Positions 3,292-64,000 of a DNA stretch of 64,000 nt are shown here, in pieces; positions within the stretch are counted from its first letter, which is position 1, and every line of letters starts with the position of its first letter. The stretch is from Patescibacteria group bacterium (GTDB taxonomy: Bacteria; Patescibacteriota; Microgenomatia; UBA1400; Chisholmbacteraceae): positions 12,747 to 76,746 of the forward strand of contig JADFLW010000003.1 in assembly GCA_022564195.1 (NCBI GenBank), in the 5' to 3' direction. The position numbers were made by a program, and so were the translations under genes. Below the pieces are notes generated by a model, which saw nothing but the letters and a program-made list of their open reading frames with translations, was not told the origin of the DNA and did no database searches.

Positions 3292-4272
3292 TCATCCGAG
3301 AAGAATCTGTGGAGGCTTCAAAGGCAATCTTCGGAATTCTTTTTTCACCAGCAGAGAAAAAGTAGCCAAAATGGCGAGCGGCCAAGCGATCCAATACTCG
3401 GCAACTGGCTGAATCGGGGGTGTTGCGAACCAGGTCCGCCATTTTCCTAAGAAAAGAATCCTCCATATCTCAAACCAGGGATATTCCGGTAAGTACGATC
3501 GATAAAGCCTGGCGATCTTGATATGAAGCGACAAAAAATCCAAAGGAGAGTGAAAAAGAAAAAAGACTGCATAGGAAAGAAGATAGACAGAGAAACTCGA
3601 AGCCGCTACCGAAAAGAGTGCATGTCGCAACTGAGGCACGCGTTTAAGTACCAAGACCACAAGGACAAAAGCCAGAAGCAGCAATCCAGTGAACACAACT
3701 TTAGTTGCCATTGCCAACCCCACGGCAGCGCCAAGAAGCAAGAGGCGTTTTCTTGAGAAGCGTGACCGAGTAAGTAAGGAAAGAGCAAGAAGCACGAACA
3801 CAAGCTGAGGAAGATCCAGATTTACGCTCGTGCTTCGCTCAAGAAACAGTGGATCGAAGACCAAAACAAGTGAGGGAAGAAGATTCAATGGAGTTGAGAC
3901 TGCAACGCGCCGAGCAAGAAGATAAGTGAGGAATACAACCACAAGACTTGCCACAAACTGCACAATCAGAATGTTGCCGAAGGCCAAGATCGAAACTCCA
4001 AAAAGGTATTTGACTAATGGAGGATCTTCGAAGTTAACGACAGAGGGATCTTTTCCGCGAATGTACTCTAAAGCCGCGAATGTCCGAAGGTCTTCGTCGC
4101 TCATGTTGCCGAAGAACTCGTATCCTTGCCCCAAGTTGTATTGTGAATGCAGCCAGATTTGGCGAAGCCGCTCATTGTCGGTGATTTGCATAGGGACATT
4201 TGAGAACGAAAAGACAAGCTTCACGGCAATGACCAATGTAAGAACAAGAGTTGCGACATGCGCTTTTTTCAT
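3292..4272 (-). CDS. Membrane glycosyltransferase, GT-C/PMT_2-like (short form)
   Basis: The ORF track gives 359 aa from 4371. I prefer ATG 4272 (MKKAHVATLVL...) because the extension runs into the divergent gene at 4341. The loop DEDLRTFAALEYIRGKDPSVVNFEDPPLVKYLFG resembles the DE...PPL loop of PMT_2 enzymes. Multiple TM spans. Confidence 0.55.
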   Translation of the reverse strand: MKKAHVATLVLTLVIAVKLVFSFSNVPMQITDNERLRQIWLHSQYNLGQGYEFFGNMSDEDLRTFAALEYIRGKDPSVVNFEDPPLVKYLFGVSILAFGNILIVQFVASLVVVFLTYLLARRVAVSTPLNLLPSLVLVFDPLFLERSTSVNLDLPQLVFVLLALSLLTRSRFSRKRLLLLGAAVGLAMATKVVFTGLLLLAFVLVVLVLKRVPQLRHALFSVAASSFSVYLLSYAVFFLFHSPLDFLSLHIKIARLYRSYLPEYPWFEIWRILFLGKWRTWFATPPIQPVAEYWIAWPLAILATFSLLVKKEFRRLPLKPPQILLG

Positions 4273-18755: not shown

Positions 18756-20111
18756 ATGGCAAAATTAGAGGAAGTCGTTGCACTCGCTAAACGCCGGGGG
18801 TTTGTTTATCCCGGAAGCGAGATTTATGGGGGTTTAAAGGGTTTTTGGGATTATGGACCTCTTGGAGTTGAATTGAAAAATAATATCAAAAGCGCATGGT
18901 GGAACGAAATGGTTTACGGGCGTGACGATGTTGTGGGGATTGACGCGGCCATAATCATGAATCCCAAAGTTTGGGAAGTATCCGGTCATACAGAAGCATT
19001 CACAGATCCTTTAGTTGAGTGCAAAAAGTGTCATAAGCGATTTAGAGAAGATCATGTTGAAGAGAGAAAAAAAATTCATAAAAAGATTCGTTACAAGACT
19101 AAAGGAGTAAGTAATATTACACTTACAAATGAAGATAAGTATTATTTATTTTGTTCTGATGGAGTAAGTCACGAATTTACAGAGCCGAGAGTTTTCAATC
19201 TATTAACAGAGGTTTTTTTGGGTGTCACTGAGCCCAAACAAAAAACATATCTTAGGGGAGAAGTTACTCAAGGAGTTTTTGTGAACTTTAAGAATATTCT
19301 TGATTCGACTTCTATGAAAGTCCCTTTTGGAATAGCGCAGATAGGAAAGGCGTTCAGAAATGAAATTACTCCGGGGAATTTTACTTACAGAACTCGTGAG
19401 TTTGAGCAGATGGAGCTTGAGTATTTCATCAAGCCAGATGAACAGCAAGCTGAAAAAACATTTGAGTACTGGAAAAAGGAGCGGATGGATTGGTATATTT
19501 CTTTGGGCATGACAAAAGAGAACTTACGTTTTAGAAAGCATGGGAAAGACGAAAGAGCACATTATGCAAAGTTTGCTGAGGACATTGAGTACAAAGCGCC
19601 TTTTGGTTGGAGTGAGTTTGAGGGGATTCATCACAGAGGAGATTGGGATTTGGGAAGGCACAAATTATCTTATAAAGATGATGAAACTGGAAAAGAATAT
19701 ACTCCTTGGGTTATAGAGACATCTGGTGGTGTTGATCGGTCTACCCTGTTTTTCTTAATTGACGCATATTATAAGGCTAAAGATAGGGTGGTTCTTAGAC
19801 TCCACCCCCGTCTTGCTCCTTACAAAGTAGCTGTTTTTCCGTTGTTGGCCAATAAGCCAAAGCTTGTCGAAAAAGCAAGGAAGGTCTTCGGCAAGCTCAG
19901 ACTCTCGTTTCACTCGACCTGGGATGATCGGGGTAACATCGGAAAGCGATACTACGCGCAAGACGAAATCGGGACCCCCTGGTGTGTGACAATTGACTTT
20001 AAAACCTTGGATGATGATACGGTGACGGTACGGGATCGCGACACGACCAAGCAGGAGCGTGTGAACATCACCAAACTGATAGCGTATTTCGATGAAAGGC
20101 TTAAAACCTAA
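18756..20111 (+). CDS. glyQS: Glycine--tRNA ligase, class II dimeric type
   Basis: RRGFVYPGSEIYGGLKGFWDYGPLGVELKNNIK and FRNEITPGNFTYRTREFEQMELEYF motifs. Confidence 0.95.
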   Translation: MAKLEEVVALAKRRGFVYPGSEIYGGLKGFWDYGPLGVELKNNIKSAWWNEMVYGRDDVVGIDAAIIMNPKVWEVSGHTEAFTDPLVECKKCHKRFREDHVEERKKIHKKIRYKTKGVSNITLTNEDKYYLFCSDGVSHEFTEPRVFNLLTEVFLGVTEPKQKTYLRGEVTQGVFVNFKNILDSTSMKVPFGIAQIGKAFRNEITPGNFTYRTREFEQMELEYFIKPDEQQAEKTFEYWKKERMDWYISLGMTKENLRFRKHGKDERAHYAKFAEDIEYKAPFGWSEFEGIHHRGDWDLGRHKLSYKDDETGKEYTPWVIETSGGVDRSTLFFLIDAYYKAKDRVVLRLHPRLAPYKVAVFPLLANKPKLVEKARKVFGKLRLSFHSTWDDRGNIGKRYYAQDEIGTPWCVTIDFKTLDDDTVTVRDRDTTKQERVNITKLIAYFDERLKT

Positions 20112-32474: not shown

Positions 32475-32525
32475 TAAAGGGGAAGGGAGGTGGTTGGGAA
32501 GCAAAAATAGCAAAGAAGCGTGTGG

Positions 32526-32720
32526 TCCCGATAGCGCTGGCGCTTATCGGGAATACGAGGAAGGGGGATCCCCCGACATCACGTCGGGGGGATCGGACTC
32601 CCGGTGTAAAATACCGGGGAGAATCTGCGGAGACCCCCTGGTTGTTCGGCCAACCACAACGGACGGATCAAAACCTCGCAGTAATGTGGGAGACAGAGTC
32701 CAACCGAAGCCGAAAGGGTT
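32526..32720 (+). ncRNA. Candidate glmS-ribozyme-like structured 5' leader
   Basis: Lies in the 349-nt gap directly upstream of glmS. GC-rich nested helices include tcccgat 32526-32532 / atcggga 32546-52. Strings AGCGC (32533), ACGAGGA (32555) and CGGACUCCCGG (32594) recall the glmS ribozyme core. P1 would be nearly absent, so the call is uncertain. Confidence 0.4.
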
Positions 32721-51496: not shown

Positions 51497-51572
51497 GGGC
51501 TCATAGCTCAATCGGCAGAGTGCTTCGTTCACATCGAAGAGGTTCCAGGTTCGAGTCCTGGTGAGCCCACCA
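51497..51572 (+). tRNA. tRNA-Val (anticodon CAC), CCA encoded
   Basis: 76-nt cloverleaf by eye. Acceptor GGGCUCA/UGAGCCC, D-stem GCUC/GAGU, anticodon stem CUUCG/CGAAG with loop UUCACAU, T-arm CCAGG-UUCGAGU-CCUGG, discriminator A, then CCA. Confidence 0.9.
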
Positions 51573-51574
51573 AT

Positions 51575-51910
51575 ATGAAAATCGTCTCTCTCGAGAAACT
51601 CAAAGATGAACCGCTGACTCACAGTCCTAAGATCAAGAAACGGGTTTTGCTAAAAAAAGGAGAGGTTCCTCATCTGACAAGTTTCTCACAAGCCACTTTC
51701 AAGCCTGGACAAATCGCCAGCGAACACGTCCATGAGGATATGTACGAAGTCTATTTAGTTCAAGGTGGAACGGGCCTGATCAAAGTCGATGGAAAAGTAC
51801 ACCAACTCAAAAAAGGCGACTGCGTGATGACTGAGCCAGGAGAGAACCACGAATTCATCAACACCGGCTCCGAGGACTTAGTCCTCACCTACTTCGGAAT
51901 ACAAAAGTAA
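51575..51910 (+). CDS. Cupin-domain protein
   Basis: Two cupin motifs: GQIASEHVHEDMYEVYLVQG and GDCVMTEPGENHEFIN. ATG 51575 is used because the track start 51491 overlaps the tRNA. Confidence 0.8.
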   Translation: MKIVSLEKLKDEPLTHSPKIKKRVLLKKGEVPHLTSFSQATFKPGQIASEHVHEDMYEVYLVQGGTGLIKVDGKVHQLKKGDCVMTEPGENHEFINTGSEDLVLTYFGIQK

Positions 51911-52001
51911 AGGAAATTCTTCTTAGGGAAAAAAGAAACCAAATAAGAACGCGTGTATGTAGGGATTGAAGAGAAAGAGAAAGCCAAACCCCAAAAAGGG
52001 G

Positions 52002-52032
52002 AGGTGAGATAGGCTCAGAGCCCACCTCACCT
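52002..52032 (-). terminator. Candidate intrinsic terminator of the island operon
   Basis: Minus strand: AGGUGAG-17 nt-CUCACCU followed by CCCCUUUUUGGGGUUUGG, about 170 nt after the stop of the last gene. Confidence 0.4.
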
Positions 52033-52199
52033 GTTCTCTCGCCGCCTCACAAGGCCATTGTAGGCCCAGAGTCCCAGGCCTCCCGCACATAGTGGGAAGA
52101 CGGAGGAAAATGACGAGATTGCTCAACACCTCTCGCACTTCAGTAAGCTCATGGATGCGATCCGACCGATAGCTAAGCGGCCGTGTGATCACGAGCGCG

Positions 52200-53639
52200 T
52201 CAGCTCTCCGCAACAGCTGCTGGGCGAGCAGGAGCCGGACGTCCGAGCCCGAGCTCCTCGGCGTAGTAGGTGATCGGTTTATCCCTCGTCTCCCTGATGA
52301 GGTCCTTTTGGGCGAACACCCACCGATTGGTAGCCTCATTGCCATTCCAGTAGACAGCTTTCACCCGCTTGATTTCGTCATACTGATCACTGGTGGTAAG
52401 GTTTTTAAGCTTCCGGCACTTCGACCTACCCACATTGATCTTCGGATGGTCAGCTAAAGGGTTGTCGGTGAACAACCACAAGAGAGTCGAGAGCGAAAGC
52501 ATCTTCTCCCGAGCAAAGTAGGCTTCGGTGGTCTGCTCCCCTCCTTGCTCATAGAGAACGTCGACGATGAGTGTCAGGCTTCGTTCCTTGCCGTCTCCGT
52601 TCGGCCGCGAGTCCCTGTACTGGCCTTTGATCGCCAGAAGCTCTGTGCCAAAGGCGATTGATTGGACGGAAATGGCTCCCGGAATCCAAGGCTGGCCTTC
52701 GGTTTTGAAGTCGCCTTCCGTTCTGAAGACCGGGCTGCGGGAATGGCCCTGGACGACCTTCGTCCCCGAGGTCTTGATCGCGATCACGCGTTTCCCGGAA
52801 GCCGTCAGCCGCCGAGCGCGCTTGATGAAAAACTCTCCCATCTGCACCCAGGCGAACATCGGGGTGACCCCTTCTGGCGCAGCATAGAGCTCCACTCGAG
52901 GATCTTCCAGATGGCCCATGAACAGCATATCATCGCTGAGGTCCGTGTAGTCCTCTTCCCGCTCTCCGGCGATGCAGGCCATGAGATGAAAGTCTGAGTA
53001 CTGATCCTCCTCCATCATCAACATCGCTGCCCTAAAAATCGCCCGTAGATTCATGGTCTTGCCAACTCCACCTGGACCGGCAATCCATAGACCGTGGCCT
53101 TCGCCGAGCGGCCATCCGCCACGGAAAATGATCCCGAGGACAGGTTCGTACTCTTCGTCCCAGGAAACCCGGCGATCGAAGTAGTCGAGTGGAAGAGGTT
53201 TGTTGGGATAGCGGCCGAAGATCTTGTTCTGATCCTCCTCGTCCGGCTTCGCAACCAAAGTGGGCCAATTTCGGACCACCGCAGCGTCCGTTTCCCCGTT
53301 GACGGAAATGATCTGAGTGATAGGGTCCGGAGGAACCTCTTCCTCGTTGTCGGATCTGCTGCTCGATCTGTCAGGCGGCTCCCGATAGAGGATAAGATCC
53401 CCTTCCCGTAATCCCCACAGCTCCACAGTAGGGGAAGGAATGAATCGGCCCCTTGCAAGGGACTCAGCAAAAATCTCACTCCTGGGGAATTTCGCCAACT
53501 TCTTGGCGTTTGGCGGGATGACCACCGTATCTGGAGTTCCCCATTTGCCGTATACAGGTCTCTGGCTCTGAGGGAGCTCCGAGAGGGGTCGTTGTAGTAC
53601 CAACCCACGCTTCGGTTTATCATCTTGTGTACTCAACAC
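52200..53639 (-). CDS. Divergent Rho-family ATPase homologue (Rho-like OB region + RecA-fold ATPase)
   Basis: By-eye collinearity with E. coli Rho:
- LREGDLILYREPP...IISVNGE vs LRTGDTISGKIRPP...KVNEVN;
- GLWIAGPGGVGKTMNL vs GLIVAPPKAGKTMLL;
- ACIAGEREEDYTDL vs LLIDERPEEVTEM;
- FIKRARRLTASGKRVIAI vs VIEKAKRLVEHKKDVIIL;
- SLTLIVDVL vs SLTIIATAL.
GTG 53639 (SD GGAAAGGAG 8 nt upstream) preferred to ATG 53699. Confidence 0.6.
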   Translation of the reverse strand: MLSTQDDKPKRGLVLQRPLSELPQSQRPVYGKWGTPDTVVIPPNAKKLAKFPRSEIFAESLARGRFIPSPTVELWGLREGDLILYREPPDRSSSRSDNEEEVPPDPITQIISVNGETDAAVVRNWPTLVAKPDEEDQNKIFGRYPNKPLPLDYFDRRVSWDEEYEPVLGIIFRGGWPLGEGHGLWIAGPGGVGKTMNLRAIFRAAMLMMEEDQYSDFHLMACIAGEREEDYTDLSDDMLFMGHLEDPRVELYAAPEGVTPMFAWVQMGEFFIKRARRLTASGKRVIAIKTSGTKVVQGHSRSPVFRTEGDFKTEGQPWIPGAISVQSIAFGTELLAIKGQYRDSRPNGDGKERSLTLIVDVLYEQGGEQTTEAYFAREKMLSLSTLLWLFTDNPLADHPKINVGRSKCRKLKNLTTSDQYDEIKRVKAVYWNGNEATNRWVFAQKDLIRETRDKPITYYAEELGLGRPAPARPAAVAES

Positions 53640-53647
53640 AAGTCTTT

Positions 53648-53679
53648 CTCCTTTCCTAGTGGGCCTCAGGCCCAACCGG
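53648..53679 (-). promoter_or_regulatory. Leader hairpin + SD motif (copy 1, before the Rho-like gene)
   Basis: RNA sense: CGGUU-GGGCC-UGA-GGCCC-ACUA-GGAAAGGAG-8 nt-GUG. Confidence 0.6.
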
Positions 53680-53720
53680 TCAGTCCGTTTTCCAGTCATT
53701 GCTGGATTGGGAACAGGCTA

Positions 53721-53750
53721 CCCTCTAGTAGTGGGCCTCTGGTCCAAAAG
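53721..53750 (-). promoter_or_regulatory. Leader hairpin motif (extra upstream copy, imperfect)
   Basis: RNA sense: UUGGACC-AGA-GGCCC-ACUACUAGAGGG, with one mismatch in the stem. Confidence 0.45.
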
Positions 53751-53996
53751 GAAATCTCTAGAGAGCATTCCGTTCCCAATCCGTACGCGTTCTTATTTGG
53801 TTGTCAAGGAGCTAATGCGAAGCATAAGCTCCGCACCCGCCAATATTTTTCGAGGGAGTATACGGCTGACTAAGCAGTAAGCCGACCATCGATAAAATAT
53901 GGTGGGAAAGTGCTATCCCGCTCAAGCGGGATCCAAATGCCCGCCCCAACAAACGCCAAATGTCTGTTTGCAGGCGTCTTATAAATTGTCAATTTT

Positions 53997-54063
53997 CCTC
54001 TGTTTCGCCCTCCGTAGCTTTAGCGTAGGGGGCTCATCAGTCAGCCTTTGGCTGAAACAGAAA
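53997..54063 (-). ncRNA. Hammerhead ribozyme motif, type III (HHR-C)
   Basis: RNA sense: UUUCUGU-U|UCAGCC-AAA-GGCUGA-CUGAUGA-GCCCCCUACGCUAAAGCUACGGAGGGC-GAAA-CAGAGG. Full catalytic core. Stems I and II are closed and stem III is open. Confidence 0.8.
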
Positions 54064-54225
54064 ACAACACAACAAAATCAAACTACAACCCCCTTCACAC
54101 AAACAAACAAACAAACAATTCATCAACCCCGCAAATGGGATTGAGATGTCTGCCGAATTTCGGTGAAGAGAGGGTGAGGGAGGGATCCCAAACTTCGGGA
54201 TCCCATTCCCATGTCAACGTCCCTC

Positions 54226-54576
54226 TTAGGACCGCCACGGTCTTCGGCCTATCCATTCGGCTGTTGGGAGGTCATTCCCGCGCCATCGTCCGTTGGATCG
54301 CAATGGATCCTCATTGACGACCTGACGTAAAAGCCCAATGGAAAGGGCGATCGCGCCGATGATGCCAACGAAAACGGCCAGGAAGCTCGAAACCAAACGC
54401 GAGAGTAGTGGAATGGACTCCACCAAATCTCGCTGAGCCGACGTTAACTCGCCGCCCGACGGAAAGCCAAATGCCGCAAACACATGAAGCGCGAATATGC
54501 CTCCCAGGAAAGGTAGGAGCAAATGAGGCCGATGAAAAGTGCTAAATGGACTCGGAAGTACCAGTCCGAAAACCAT
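54226..54576 (-). CDS. Small two-TM membrane protein (gene model uncertain)
   Basis: 116 aa. SD-like GAGGAG lies 9 nt before the ATG. Two hydrophobic spans (LLLPFLGGIFALHVFAAFGF, VSSFLAVFVGIIGAIALSIGLL). Overlaps the alternative model 54444-54677 in another frame. Confidence 0.4.
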   Translation of the reverse strand: MVFGLVLPSPFSTFHRPHLLLPFLGGIFALHVFAAFGFPSGGELTSAQRDLVESIPLLSRLVSSFLAVFVGIIGAIALSIGLLRQVVNEDPLRSNGRWRGNDLPTAEWIGRRPWRS

Positions 54577-54677
54577 TTCGGTACGCTCCTCTCATTCGGC
54601 TCTTTCCTCTTAGCTCCCAAAGGAGCACGTCCGCGATTCTTGCCGTTTCCCGCGATCCAACCCCTCAAAGTGATCAA
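54444..54677 (-). CDS. Alternative small one-TM ORF starting at UUG after a leader hairpin (gene model uncertain)
   Basis: The leader motif GGUUUGGCC-AGA-GGCCAA-CUACGAAGGGAGGAAGGAU sits directly before in-frame TTG 54677. 77 aa with one hydrophobic span. Confidence 0.35.
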   Translation of the reverse strand: MITLRGWIAGNGKNRGRAPLGAKRKEPNERSVPKWFSDWYFRVHLALFIGLICSYLSWEAYSRFMCLRHLAFRRAAS

Positions 54678-54679
54678 AT

Positions 54680-54716
54680 CCTTCCTCCCTTCGTAGTTGG
54701 CCTCTGGCCAAACCGG
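54680..54716 (-). promoter_or_regulatory. Leader hairpin + SD motif (copy 2)
   Basis: RNA sense: CGGUU-UGGCC-AGA-GGCCA-ACUACGAAGGGAGGAAGGA. Confidence 0.55.
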
Positions 54717-54914
54717 ATACTGGAACGCTTCATTGGGCGATTGATCCCGAATGAAGGATAAAACGGATAAGTCCGGGAGGAGCAGGTTCGAGAGAACCCA
54801 ACTCCTCTTTTTTTGGCTAGCGCCGATCAGATCAAGAGCAAGAGCAATGCATACCCCAGCCATTTCAACTGAACGTTTTGGAACATGATCGCTCCTTCCA
54901 TCGAATCGTCGTGA

Positions 54915-56537
54915 CTAAGACGACGAATCGTTCTCATCAACCTCTCGGAGTTGAGACGGTCTGGTTCGACCGCCTGACGATTTCCCGCGACGAAGCCGTA
55001 GCGAGACGCGCCCCCGTGACACCGCGGTATCCCCCGACGCCAAAGCGCTATCGTCGACTTCGCGTAGGGTAGAGGATCTCTTCGCCGGCTGCGCAACCTC
55101 CGGTGGTTGAGCCACATCCGTGACCCGATCCACCACAGTCGGCTGCAGTTCACGATACTTCTCTTGCACGTATCGCGCCTCGATGTCGGCGATGTGCCAT
55201 CCCTGACCGAGCAACCGGGCAAACAGCCTGAGCGTAATACCAGAGCGAAGGCAGAACGCGATCGCGTCGTCCCTCTCAAGACCAGCGTCTTCGATGCGCT
55301 TACGCTTGTAGAAGGTATCGCTGTCCCACAGCGCTTCGAGCTCTGCGCGAAATTTCGCGTTGTCTTGCTTGAGCTCGTCAAGCGAGCGGGTGATCACCGG
55401 ACGGCCCGGGAGTTCATCAGAGAACTCCTCCTGAACCTCCGCAATGGTGACCCCAGGCATAGCCAGTTCTTGCCCGATCTCGAAGCCTTCAAAGCTCCAA
55501 TGATCGGGATCCTCGACTGTGGCCTCGTCAATCGTGGAGGGTTCTGCCTTGATCCGAAGCAGGGCGTCGTAATGAACCATCACTGCCTGGAAAGCCTCCT
55601 CCGCCTGCGCATCGGTCGCGCCTCCAGCAAGGGCCTCCACTCCAGCTGCATTCGCTCGACTCTCAGCTGTGCCTCGAAGCTGTAGCATGAACGCTGCGCG
55701 TCGTCGAATCTTGCCCCGAGCATTCATGAAAGCGACGGCATTCTCCCTGTAGAGAGCCAAGTCGTGTGCCCGTGGCCCGGCCCTGGAGGGGAAGCTCAAG
55801 CTCATGACATCCTCTTTCTGGAATCTGCGCTTGTTCCACCACTTCCTGAGTCGACTCGTCTTGATATCATTATCGAGCAGGTCAGGATCGGTGCGGGCCA
55901 ACACGTCTTCGATCATCGTCGTCGGCGTCGCCGAGATATACATATCCTCCCCGGCCTTGAATAGGCTGGGAATGGTGACACCGCCTTTGCGATGTCGCAT
56001 CTCATCAGTGTAGATGAGATACCTGTCTTGGCGTTGCTGCCAGCGAAGGACGTGGTACGTAAGCGTCGGCGTGAGGAACGCAAGCACAGGCCACGCCCAA
56101 AACGCCATCCCCCATTCGGGGGCCGATGGGTCGATCAACTTGAAATCGGGGACGTCTGGCGAAACCGTGATCGCCGCTACAAATGCGCCCAACGCCAAAT
56201 TGATGAACGACACCGTGACAGCCAGGAGAAACGGCCCAAAGATGCTAAAACCGAAGGCGAAGGGAGACCATTTGAGAAACTCCGGCCAAACGTACGCCTT
56301 CTTGCTCATTTCCAGCACCTTTTCAAGCCTAACTCCTGCCTCGAGTTCGCGCGTCCGCTTCTTCTCACTCACGAGGAAGAAAAAGTCGAAGACACGCTGG
56401 ATCACCTTCTCCCCGAAAGGGAAGATCATCAGTGTTGCAGAGAAGATGATCCAGACGCAAACCACGATGATGGCAAGGCCAACATACGCGGCTGCATCCG
56501 ACGGAAGTACCTCTGAAAGGAACTCTTCGAACGTCAC
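54915..56537 (-). CDS. Membrane protein with about 4 N-terminal TM spans and a large soluble C-terminal domain; function unknown
   Basis: 540 aa. GTG start 8 nt after SD GAAGGAG. No nucleotide-binding motif seen. Confidence 0.6.
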   Translation of the reverse strand: MTFEEFLSEVLPSDAAAYVGLAIIVVCVWIIFSATLMIFPFGEKVIQRVFDFFFLVSEKKRTRELEAGVRLEKVLEMSKKAYVWPEFLKWSPFAFGFSIFGPFLLAVTVSFINLALGAFVAAITVSPDVPDFKLIDPSAPEWGMAFWAWPVLAFLTPTLTYHVLRWQQRQDRYLIYTDEMRHRKGGVTIPSLFKAGEDMYISATPTTMIEDVLARTDPDLLDNDIKTSRLRKWWNKRRFQKEDVMSLSFPSRAGPRAHDLALYRENAVAFMNARGKIRRRAAFMLQLRGTAESRANAAGVEALAGGATDAQAEEAFQAVMVHYDALLRIKAEPSTIDEATVEDPDHWSFEGFEIGQELAMPGVTIAEVQEEFSDELPGRPVITRSLDELKQDNAKFRAELEALWDSDTFYKRKRIEDAGLERDDAIAFCLRSGITLRLFARLLGQGWHIADIEARYVQEKYRELQPTVVDRVTDVAQPPEVAQPAKRSSTLREVDDSALASGDTAVSRGRVSLRLRRGKSSGGRTRPSQLREVDENDSSS

Positions 56538-56545
56538 ATCTCACA

Positions 56546-56575
56546 CTCCTTCGTAGTGGGACTCTGTCCCAACCG
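56546..56575 (-). promoter_or_regulatory. Leader hairpin + SD motif (copy 3)
   Basis: RNA sense: CGGUU-GGGAC-AGA-GUCCC-ACUACGAAGGAG-8 nt-GUG. Confidence 0.6.
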
Positions 56576-56782
56576 AATGAACCATACGCGTCGTTGCGCG
56601 TGGGCTCGAAAATGAACCCGACGGAGTCGGGGCCACATTAGAGCCCACTGCCTGACACGCAGGCACTCTCTACGAATGATCAATTCCCATCTTTCCTTTC
56701 TATAATCTTGTTGTGTTGTCAAAGTGCGTATCCCTCGCCCGTATACCACGCTCGCATTGAGCAGGTTTGAGTTTGGAATGTA

Positions 56783-56854
56783 TTCTGTTTCGTCCCTCCA
56801 TAGCTTATTAGCGACGGGGGACTCATCAGGTCCGACGTATATCGGACGACAGAA
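56783..56854 (-). ncRNA. Hammerhead ribozyme motif, type III (HHR-B)
   Basis: RNA sense: UUCUGU-C|GUCCG-AUAUACGU-CGGAC-CUGAUGA-GUCCCCCGUCGCUAAUAAGCUAUGGAGGGAC-GAAA-CAGAA. Classical GUC cleavage triplet. Confidence 0.85.
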
Positions 56855-63997: not shown

Positions 63998-64000
63998 TCA

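Follow-up and report, generated by a model that had tools for sequence, protein, structure and literature searches.

A type III hammerhead motif upstream of a Rho-like gene in a high-GC island of a Patescibacteria bacterium

The stretch of DNA analyzed here (contig JADFLW010000003.1 of assembly GCA_022564195.1, positions 12,747 to 76,746; 64,000 nucleotides, hereafter the window) carries on its minus strand a genuine type III hammerhead motif, HHR-C, which is under structural conservation and lies ~300 nt upstream of the start codon of a gene for a Rho-like P-loop ATPase. Two paralogous copies, HHR-B and HHR-A, lie on the same strand (A to B, 4.2 kb; B to C, 2.8 kb), and all three occupy the coding strand of long, non-coding intergenic gaps in a high-GC island. 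We consider it likely that HHR-C is a cis-acting self-cleaving ribozyme that processes polycistronic or read-through transcripts of this island.

HHR-C is a type III hammerhead motif under structural conservation

Read on the minus strand from 54063 to 53997, HHR-C is UUUCUGU-U^UCAGCC-AAA-GGCUGA-CUGAUGA-GCCCCCUACGCUAAAGCUACGGAGGGC-GAAA-CAGAGG, where the caret marks predicted scission. Its segments follow one another in the order 5' strand of stem III, N17, hairpin I, CUGAUGA, hairpin II, GAA and 3' strand of stem III, which is the type III topology. Positions C3 to A9 are CUGAUGA (54040..54034), and G12 to A14 are GAA (54006..54004). A15.1 (54003) is paired with U16.1 (54057), N17 is U (54056) and position 1.1 is U (54055), and the predicted scission falls between the last two. 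Stem I (54055..54041) is a hairpin of 6 perfect base pairs (UCAGCC/GGCUGA) with an AAA loop. Stem II (54033..54007, 27 nt) begins with four perfect GCCC/GGGC pairs, which are followed by a bulged A, two C-G pairs and an irregular distal part. Stem III is open; its 5' strand (54064..54057) and 3' strand (54003..53996) form 7 pairs, or 8 with an added A-U pair (54064/53996), and two of the pairs are G-U. HHR-C agrees with the hammerhead consensus throughout the core (C3 U4 G5 A6 N7 G8 A9, G12 A13 A14, A15.1-U16.1 and an H17 that is not G), and the core-adjacent pairs are the standard ones (1.1-2.1 U-A, 10.1-11.1 G-C and 15.1-16.1 A-U). HHR-C thus has the consensus core and the Watson-Crick pairs abutting the core in all three stems by which Perreault et al. 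accepted bacterial hammerheads, criteria that also allow no multiple mispairs in short stems (PMC3088659). With the core forced to be single-stranded, the canonical fold lies within ~1 kcal/mol of the minimum free energy fold for HHR-C, HHR-B and HHR-A, and it is the minimum free energy fold for an orthologous hammerhead in a related contig, L014. The original prediction, which was made from the letters of the window, had described HHR-C with this sequence, topology, core and scission site; our reading agrees with it letter by letter, and the two further copies that it listed are both present.

The Rfam model RF00008 (Hammerhead_3) aligns with HHR-C over its full length (model positions 1-54 of 54), with all paired regions and the core aligned, at an E-value of 2e-4 for both strands of the whole window and 1.5e-6 for a local 501 nt. 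We also searched the window with an RNAMotif-like descriptor that calls for the motifs CUGANGA and GAAA, an N17 other than G, and a minimum of 4 pairs in the stem I hairpin and of 3 pairs each in stems II and III. Exactly three sites are found, all of them on the minus strand, and these are copies A, B and C, whereas the number expected from 300 dinucleotide-preserving shuffles of the window is 0.013 on average. In addition, a covariance model, R1, was built from HHR-A, HHR-B and the L014 orthologue, with HHR-C left out. The model was limited to these three because a MAFFT alignment of six hammerheads misaligned the 5' strand of stem I; the other sequences were then realigned to the model. R1 recovers HHR-C with an E-value of ~3e-7. 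On the strength of the shuffles and of this independent model, we reject a chance match as the explanation for HHR-C. The same results, together with the syntenic hammerhead of L014, whose stems have diverged and still pair, favor the original proposal of a functional RNA over a chance resemblance.

One other site in the window (19379-19457) gives a weak R1 match (13.9 bits, E = 0.26), which we dismissed since no hammerhead core is found there on reading. No hammerheads beyond copies A, B and C and the L014 copy were found in the island or its relatives with Rfam at E <= 10 or with R1 with its filters off, and the Rfam search at the same threshold found no other ribozyme classes in them. A glmS ribozyme/riboswitch is found in the low-GC host part of the window (32506-32716, plus strand), with a score of 55.8 bits against a gathering score of 37 and a 56-nt insertion relative to the model. 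It represents a second self-cleaving ribozyme class in the same window and is unrelated to the hammerheads.

The other copies differ from HHR-C in their stems. HHR-B would be cleaved after GUC, between 56848 and 56847, and its stem I is GUCCGAU-AUAC-GUCGGAC. HHR-A would be cleaved after GUU, between 61076 and 61075, and it has a 10-bp stem III and a long stem II of 41 nt. In a block of syntenic genes, L014 encodes a protein of 709 amino acids (aa) that is 46% identical to the 803-aa ATPase encoded downstream of HHR-A. The gap upstream of this gene, which corresponds to the site of copy A, holds the textbook type III hammerhead GGCUUUGUA^GUCCGAU-GUGU-AUCGGGC-CUGACGA-GACC-AAAA-GGUC-GAAACAGAGUU, in which N17 is A. 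Among the hammerheads compared, pair 10.2-11.2 is C-G, U-A or A-U, and pair 15.6-16.6 is G-U, A-U, C-G or G-C; pair 15.4-16.4 is G-C in copies C and B and G-U in copy A, as the original prediction had it. N17 is U, C, U, A, C and C over six sequences and is never G. In the model-fitted alignment of six distinct sequences, 97.7% of the cells are paired, and both partners have changed in 6 of the 15 pairs. These values are not attained by any of 500 column shuffles, and pairing falls to 33-56% when the partners are slid.

Stem I deserves separate mention, since it had been described as fully covarying. It is UCAGCC/GGCUGA in copy C and GUCCG/CGGAC in copies A and B, so that both partners in copy C are different at each of the five shared positions, with the pairing intact. 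The pairing has therefore been kept, as claimed, and the compensatory character of the stems holds up. The sequence and length of the loop also differ, however, with 8 or 4 nt in the other copies and 3 nt in copy C, which suggests that the difference in stem I is probably a swap of the entire hairpin, that is, one event rather than five. The compensatory changes, which come from six distinct sequences that include three paralogues and from an alignment fitted to the model, are supportive of structural conservation and do not constitute a formal, statistically established test of covariation. The copies themselves are mosaic: HHR-A and HHR-B have stem I and the sequence flanking it in common (45 nt, 89% identical, family D10), the stem II sequences of HHR-B and HHR-C are homologous, and the bulged A after the fourth stem II pair recurs in copies A, B and C and in a hammerhead of metagenome contig L008.

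The island, its Rho-like gene and the intergenic module

The GC content of the window rises from ~0.48 to ~0.56 just past a tRNA-Val(CAC) gene and stays high to the window end (51900-64000). The low-GC host part encodes FtsZ, FtsA, FtsW, L21, L27, ParB and signal peptidase. The FtsZ encoded there shares 67-71% identity with the FtsZ proteins of metagenome-assembled genomes (MAGs) of Levyibacteria, Gottesmanbacteria and Woesebacteria, indicating that the host is a Patescibacteria (candidate phyla radiation, CPR) bacterium of the Microgenomates type. On the minus strand, the gene order of the island is two membrane proteins of 184 and 592 aa, HHR-A, an 803-aa P-loop protein, a 487-aa protein with an M23 peptidase domain, HHR-B, a 540-aa membrane protein, a 139-aa open reading frame (ORF), HHR-C and a 499-aa P-loop protein. 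The same contig is found in three assemblies, in which the island extends at least 7 kb past the window end; 19 kb of island were available for analysis. Coordinates of the features are collected in Table 1.

Table 1. Features of the window in and around the island
Feature	Coordinates	Strand	Remarks
tRNA-Val(CAC)	51497..51572	plus	island boundary
Gene for 499-aa divergent Rho-family P-loop ATPase	52200..53699	minus	491 aa in ENA call, start 53675
Island-specific 22-24 nt box AGCTCCTTGACAACCAAATAAGAA	53790..53813	minus	between HHR-C and the Rho-like gene
HHR-C, type III hammerhead	53996..54064	minus	RF00008 37.3 bits; model R1 33.2 bits
Terminator-like hairpin TCAATCCC-attTGC-GGGGTTGA	54123..54144	minus	followed by GU-rich tract running into HHR-C stem III
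GC hairpin GGGATCCC-gaagttt-GGGATCCC, then CU-rich tract CCCTCCCTCACCCTCTCTTCACC	54145..54215	minus	upstream part of module
HHR-B, paralogous type III hammerhead	56783..56854	minus	upstream of 540-aa membrane-protein gene; R1 92.9 bits (in model seed)
HHR-A, paralogous type III hammerhead	60997..61086	minus	upstream of 803-aa P-loop ATPase gene; RF00008 20.5 bits

The island proteins have few relatives. In a word-indexed search of 5.8 billion proteins, the 499-aa protein has three matches including itself, hence two relatives, and the 803-aa protein has two including itself, hence one. When the island proteins were compared with Pfam and PHROGs, only the M23 peptidase domain was recognized, and the 19 kb gave neither an integrase nor a phage hallmark. 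A tblastn search with the 803-aa protein gave no match among GenBank phages and PLSDB plasmids. The type IV secretion system of Patescibacteria (PMC12102498) was considered and set aside, as neither the 803-aa protein nor its homologue P0005 matches a VirB4-type Pfam family at E <= 5. We conclude that the island appears to be a horizontally acquired element of no assigned type, the prophage nature of which is not established by the genes found. The related island in L014 has a GC content ~10 points above that of its host and adjoins two tRNA genes.

Three further observations concern the island contigs. In L012:1-5119 (ERZ24945681, NODE_1109), a block of four island genes (462, 110, 142 and 64 aa) is found twice in tandem, ~3.5 kb apart, which is either a real duplication or an assembly artefact. 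The island contigs tend to break at or near hammerhead gaps, where L002 and L003 start and L012, L013 and L014 end. In the island beyond the window end, a 97-nt repeat (L011:1-97 and 3565-3661, 94% identity) lies upstream of two small ORFs, and the differences between its copies are compensatory within a hairpin (GCCAAGTG...TACTTGGC vs GCTAGGTG...CACCTGGC). The repeat contains CUGAUGA...GAAA, but no hammerhead fold was obtained for it, and it is without an Rfam match.

The 499-aa protein encoded downstream of HHR-C gives only weak matches by itself (PF00006 at E = 0.044; PDB matches at E ~0.1-0.2, all of them Rho chains). A profile of this protein and its two close homologues, by contrast, retrieves 1175 proteins at E <= 1e-3, and among 40 sampled relatives PF00006 is found in 35 and Rho_RNA_bind in 9. 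When a profile of the ten closest members is compared with the PDB, it matches Rho at E = 7e-38 over profile positions 62-395, which corresponds to most of the Rho chain, as compared with 2e-16 for type III secretion and flagellar ATPases and still weaker matches for F1 beta subunits. The name "Rho-like" in the original prediction is thus borne out by the family profile. An RNA-binding domain of Rho (Pfam Rho_RNA_bind, Rho_N) was not detected in the 499-aa protein of the window or in P0002, and the AlphaFold model of the 499-aa protein is unusable, with a predicted local distance difference test score of 36. Assignment of the protein to the Rho family seems justified on the basis of these profiles, and "Rho-like" is used here with no implication of Rho orthology. 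In IMG/VR the Rho-like protein has a single relative, L095, which is 30% identical over 134 residues and has no hammerhead. For a 243-aa protein encoded at L014:5111-5842 (plus strand), PF03118, the C-terminal domain of RNA polymerase alpha, is the only Pfam match. This protein and the Rho-family ATPase hint that the element may carry transcription-related factors of its own.

HHR-C is part of a larger intergenic module, which begins with a GC hairpin after the stop codon and continues with a CU-rich tract, a second hairpin, a purine-rich segment, a GU-rich tract, the hammerhead and the box. The structured part upstream of the hammerhead is found in the window at 54215..54064 and 61235..61083 (minus strand), at L014:9580-9712 and L014:15695-15839, and at L004:145-275. 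The unit of second hairpin and GU-rich tract likewise precedes HHR-A (61157..61136) and is present in L014 and L004. The whole module, including its hairpins, CU tract, GU tract, hammerhead and box, is conserved at the copy A position of L014. At the end of the L014 contig, after its last gene, the module occurs again and stops at ...gttgtgtctgtt, precisely at the point from which a C-position hammerhead would be expected to start. RNAalifold pairs the CU-rich tract with the purine-rich segment GTGAAGGGGG downstream of the second hairpin, in a long-range helix that encloses this hairpin. Covariation in the module is weak, with double changes in 5 of 22 pairs. The module is present in L004 without a hammerhead and is thus an independent element, which might serve as a structure at the 3' end or as a loading site for Rho. 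The hairpins upstream of the hammerhead have no proper U-run, which would make them weak terminators and read-through plausible.

Within the window, only the island has the box that lies between HHR-C and the Rho-like gene. Its closer copies in the window lie at 56705-56724 and 60886-60905 (minus strand), with the consensus AGCACTTTGACAACACAACAAGAA and the type CTTTGACAACACAACAAGAA (family D7), and further copies lie at L011:6945 and, in the relatives, at L014:9848 and 13728, L004 ~395 and L005:1-20. Four island genes are preceded by the box at a distance of 135-311 nt; all relatives have it, and the host part of the window lacks it. The box can be separated from the hammerhead, since it is kept without one at L014:13728 and in L004, and it is a candidate for an element-specific promoter or RNA signal. 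A TTGACAA within ~10 nt after HHR-A and HHR-C was considered as a sigma-70 promoter and not adopted, because there is no -10 hexamer at 16-18 nt. At L009:4112-4213 (plus strand), a second sequence matches a hammerhead weakly (20.2 bits; the core is CUGAAGA, and stems I and III are short), and a good promoter of the sigma-70 type, TTGACA-N18-TATAAC, lies within ~15 nt after it.

Two leader elements recur near the island genes. A short hairpin with a Shine-Dalgarno-like sequence (TTGGGAC-aga-GTCCCA-CTACGAAGGA) is found next to island start codons at ~56553..56528, 54693..54668, 53747..53722 and 53675..53650 (minus strand, from L011 coordinates), and its stem shows compensatory changes (GGGAC/GTCCC, GGCC/GGCC and GGACC/GGCCC). 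The leaders after HHR-A and HHR-B (60831..60765 and 56650..56584, minus strand) share a 67-nt repeat at 81% identity. A hairpin resembling a terminator, CCCGAC-nnn-GTCGGG, plus AUCAUUUUUG lies within this repeat at 60812..60798 and 56631..56617, where it overlaps the annotated start codons or stands just before them, and it may be an attenuator.

Possible roles of the hammerheads in island transcripts

We infer that the region is transcribed through, that the RNA is cleaved in vivo and that processing or insulation of mRNA is the consequence. A transcript from the upstream 540-aa and 139-aa ORFs would run on into the module, and the RNA would fold into a three-way junction and cut itself after U17. 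The upstream product would then carry a 2',3'-cyclic phosphate end on a short GU-rich tail, ~70 nt past two stable hairpins at which 3' exonucleases could be halted. The downstream product, with the Rho-like gene, would begin with a 5'-hydroxyl followed by the compact hairpins of stems I and II. A 5'-hydroxyl end is a poor substrate for 5'-monophosphate-dependent nucleases, and this would be expected to apply to the HHR-C product as well. HHR-A and HHR-B would do likewise before the 803-aa ATPase gene and the 540-aa membrane-protein gene. Long or read-through island transcripts would in this way be punctuated into gene-sized units, the stability and translation of which would be uncoupled.

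Several observations weigh against this proposal. The score of HHR-C with RF00008, 37.3 bits, is below the gathering score of 48.5, a shortfall that is due mainly to the long stem II insertion. An alternative, inactive fold, in which U17-U1.1-C1.2 pair with G12-A13-A14, is 1.1 kcal/mol more stable than the canonical one. Stem II has internal mismatches, and inspection of HHR-C for complementarity between loops I and II or for a pseudoknot identified none. Contact between loops or bulges of stems I and II is needed for fast hammerhead cleavage at physiological Mg2+. Moreover, few of the viral type III hammerheads scanned have the GUU triplet of HHR-C and HHR-A (109 have C at position 17, 22 have A and 2 have U), so HHR-C may cleave slowly. 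The GUU site, the alternative fold, the irregular stem II and the absence of an identifiable loop-loop contact all count against strong activity of HHR-C. Turning to the relatives, the Rho-like protein of L004 shows 48% identity, and its contig retains both box and hairpin module but has AT-rich sequence instead of the hammerhead, indicating that the ribozyme is dispensable at the C position. L005 starts at the box, downstream of the C position, and gives no view of the hammerhead site. By this comparison the ribozyme is a conserved but separable module. Finally, if the downstream box is the promoter of the next gene, the hammerhead would lie outside the primary transcript of that gene and would act only on read-through RNA. 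In function, the hammerhead may go with the 5' untranslated region of the gene downstream or with the 3' end of the unit that precedes it.

The last of these points leads to a different account of the same arrangement, in which the hammerheads are 3'-end or insulator elements and each downstream gene has its own promoter at the box. Placed between a weak terminator and the box promoter, the hammerhead would sever read-through RNA and set the 3' end of the upstream transcript, and it might aid termination by the read-through polymerase, perhaps with the Rho-like factor of the element. The order of hairpin, GU tract, hammerhead and box is conserved in copy A, copy C and L014, which fits such a role, as do the restriction of the box to the island and its persistence without a hammerhead at L014:13728 and in L004. 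In L004 the hexamer TATAAC lies 18 nt after the box, the L009 match described above is followed by a complete TTGACA-N18-TATAAC promoter, and the CU-rich, G-poor upstream tracts resemble Rho loading sites as these are generally known. In copies A, B and C, however, no -10-like hexamer is found after the box at sigma-70 spacing, and we know of no established case of ribozyme-assisted termination in bacteria, which also speaks against this account. We regard it as possible but rather unlikely, and as a variant of transcript processing by HHR-C rather than an alternative that excludes it.

It is improbable, in our estimation, that the three copies are merely relics of a duplicated intergenic cassette, kept by recent duplication or gene conversion and lacking a present role. 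The 45 nt at 89% identity around stem I of HHR-A and HHR-B, the homologous stem II of HHR-B and HHR-C, and the missing hammerhead at the C position of L004 are all consistent with such a history. All assemblies that contain copy C are 100% identical, which leaves no variation within the population to examine. Decayed copies would be expected to carry core mutations, however, and the core is intact throughout in the three copies and in the L014 orthologue, while their stems differ and yet pair. The L014 copy has also kept its position next to a protein that is only 46% identical, and N17 is restricted to U, C or A. A still more remote proposal is that pairs of hammerheads excise the intervening RNA (4.2 kb and 2.8 kb) as pieces with 5'-hydroxyl and 2',3'-cyclic phosphate ends, which would be circularized by the ribozyme or by an RtcB-type ligase; we consider this highly improbable. 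The copies do lie on the same strand at kilobase spacing, their long stem III (8-10 bp) would hold the ends together, and the possibility has been raised for bacterial hammerheads (PMC3088659). On the other hand, no unit is repeated in tandem, the stretches between the hammerheads are ordinary protein-coding genes, and a search of comparable arrangements for circular or spliced products found none (PMC3088659).

Processing of island transcripts by HHR-C remains the explanation that we prefer, and it can be extended speculatively. The island might be an undescribed mobile element of Patescibacteria with its own system of transcript punctuation, in which the hammerheads cooperate with the Rho-family motor of the element. 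Each gene boundary would then comprise a C-rich loading tract, hairpins, a hammerhead and an element-specific promoter box; cleavage would free untranslated RNA behind the read-through polymerase, and the Rho-like factor would use this RNA to terminate transcription. We think it very unlikely that this is so. If it were true, the system would be a bacterial counterpart of termination assisted by co-transcriptional cleavage.

HHR-C among known hammerheads

Hammerheads of the HHR-C kind are already well described. Perreault et al. reported hundreds of bacterial hammerheads in 2011, many of them near integrase or prophage genes, and clustered type III copies that flank genes in prophage-like regions have been known since then (PMC3088659). 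Triple arrangements occur in Agrobacterium tumefaciens, Azorhizobium caulinodans and Clostridium scindens; cleavage in vitro was demonstrated for three tandem arrangements, and processing of long transcripts into operon- or gene-length mRNAs was proposed (PMC3088659). A 2019 review describes the role of genomic hammerheads of bacteria and phages as still undefined (PMC6765202). Reports of hammerheads in Patescibacteria are absent from the top results of our literature search.

The motif is common in viral contigs. A generic pattern (CTGATGAGNCC...GGNCGAAACAG) matches at least 120 IMG/VR contigs; among the matches listed, 93 have a type III descriptor match and 28 have two or three copies, which are on one strand in those inspected. 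Many of the listed viral hammerheads have a 7-bp stem I with a GUGU loop and the stem II GACC-AAAA-GGUC. Compared with viral type III hammerheads of this layout (L098, L097 and L100; 7-bp stem I, GUGU or GAGU loop), the L014 copy has the same GUGU loop and an identical stem II, and HHR-B shares the 7-bp stem I with a tetraloop. HHR-C differs from them in its 6-bp stem I, its AAA triloop, its much longer, irregular stem II and its U17, which is found in 2 of 133 viral examples. A more specific pattern, CTGATGAGYCCCN{8,38}GGGRCGAAACAG, has no matches in viral and genome contigs, and in metagenomes it finds five contigs that hold two unrelated type III hammerheads.

These metagenome hammerheads lie at L006:240-301, L008:505-566 and L010:323-384, where the same leader and hammerhead stand ~20 nt before the ribosome-binding site of three different genes. 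Within ~0.5 kb of a type III hammerhead, the metagenome contigs also carry Twister-P5 matches, which score 59.3 and 52.1 bits against a gathering score of 37.6, and a match of 31.9 bits that resembles a type II hammerhead (sites L006:754-810, L010:831-887 and L010:80-143, all on the minus strand). The presence of Twister-P5 and hammerhead on the same contigs fits the known co-occurrence of ribozyme classes.

HHR-C resembles RF00008 in that it aligns over the whole model, all paired regions and the core included, and it departs from the model in its 27-nt stem II with mismatches, where the model has a short hairpin. HHR-A scores weakly with RF00008 and HHR-B is not listed at all, owing to their long stem II elements. 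With each of the three copies either below the RF00008 threshold or unlisted, standard annotation would miss all of them, which suggests that bacterial hammerheads with long stem II insertions are under-counted.

Like HHphage of haloviruses HF1 and HF2, HHR-C lies upstream of a gene for an NTP-dependent nucleic-acid motor protein. HHphage precedes the first gene of a polycistronic unit, and a mapped mRNA 5' end coincides with its cleavage site (PMC3088659). The core of HHphage is a variant one and only 13 nt separate it from the start codon, whereas HHR-C has the consensus core and the greater distance from its gene given above. An engineered parallel, in mechanism only, is the synthetic insulator RiboJ, which was reportedly derived from the type III hammerhead of sTRSV by Lou et al. 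in 2012: upstream RNA context is removed, and a defined, structured 5'-hydroxyl end is left.

What is new here is modest, namely the host phylum, three copies that escape the Rfam threshold, a conserved multi-part module and a divergent Rho-family gene downstream. Knowledge of hammerheads as such is unchanged, and the locus could serve as a compact test case for the punctuation of operons by ribozymes. To the clusters described in 2011 it adds a clean example, with three paralogues and one orthologue at fixed positions in a conserved intergenic module. The island shares with those clusters several same-strand copies that lie kilobases apart between genes, have variable stems and flank poorly characterized genes in an acquired region. 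It differs from them in that no integrase or recognizable phage gene was found in the available 19 kb, in that its host is a Patescibacteria MAG and all three copies are type III, and in that each copy is embedded in a larger conserved module of hairpins, CU tract, GU tract and island-specific box.

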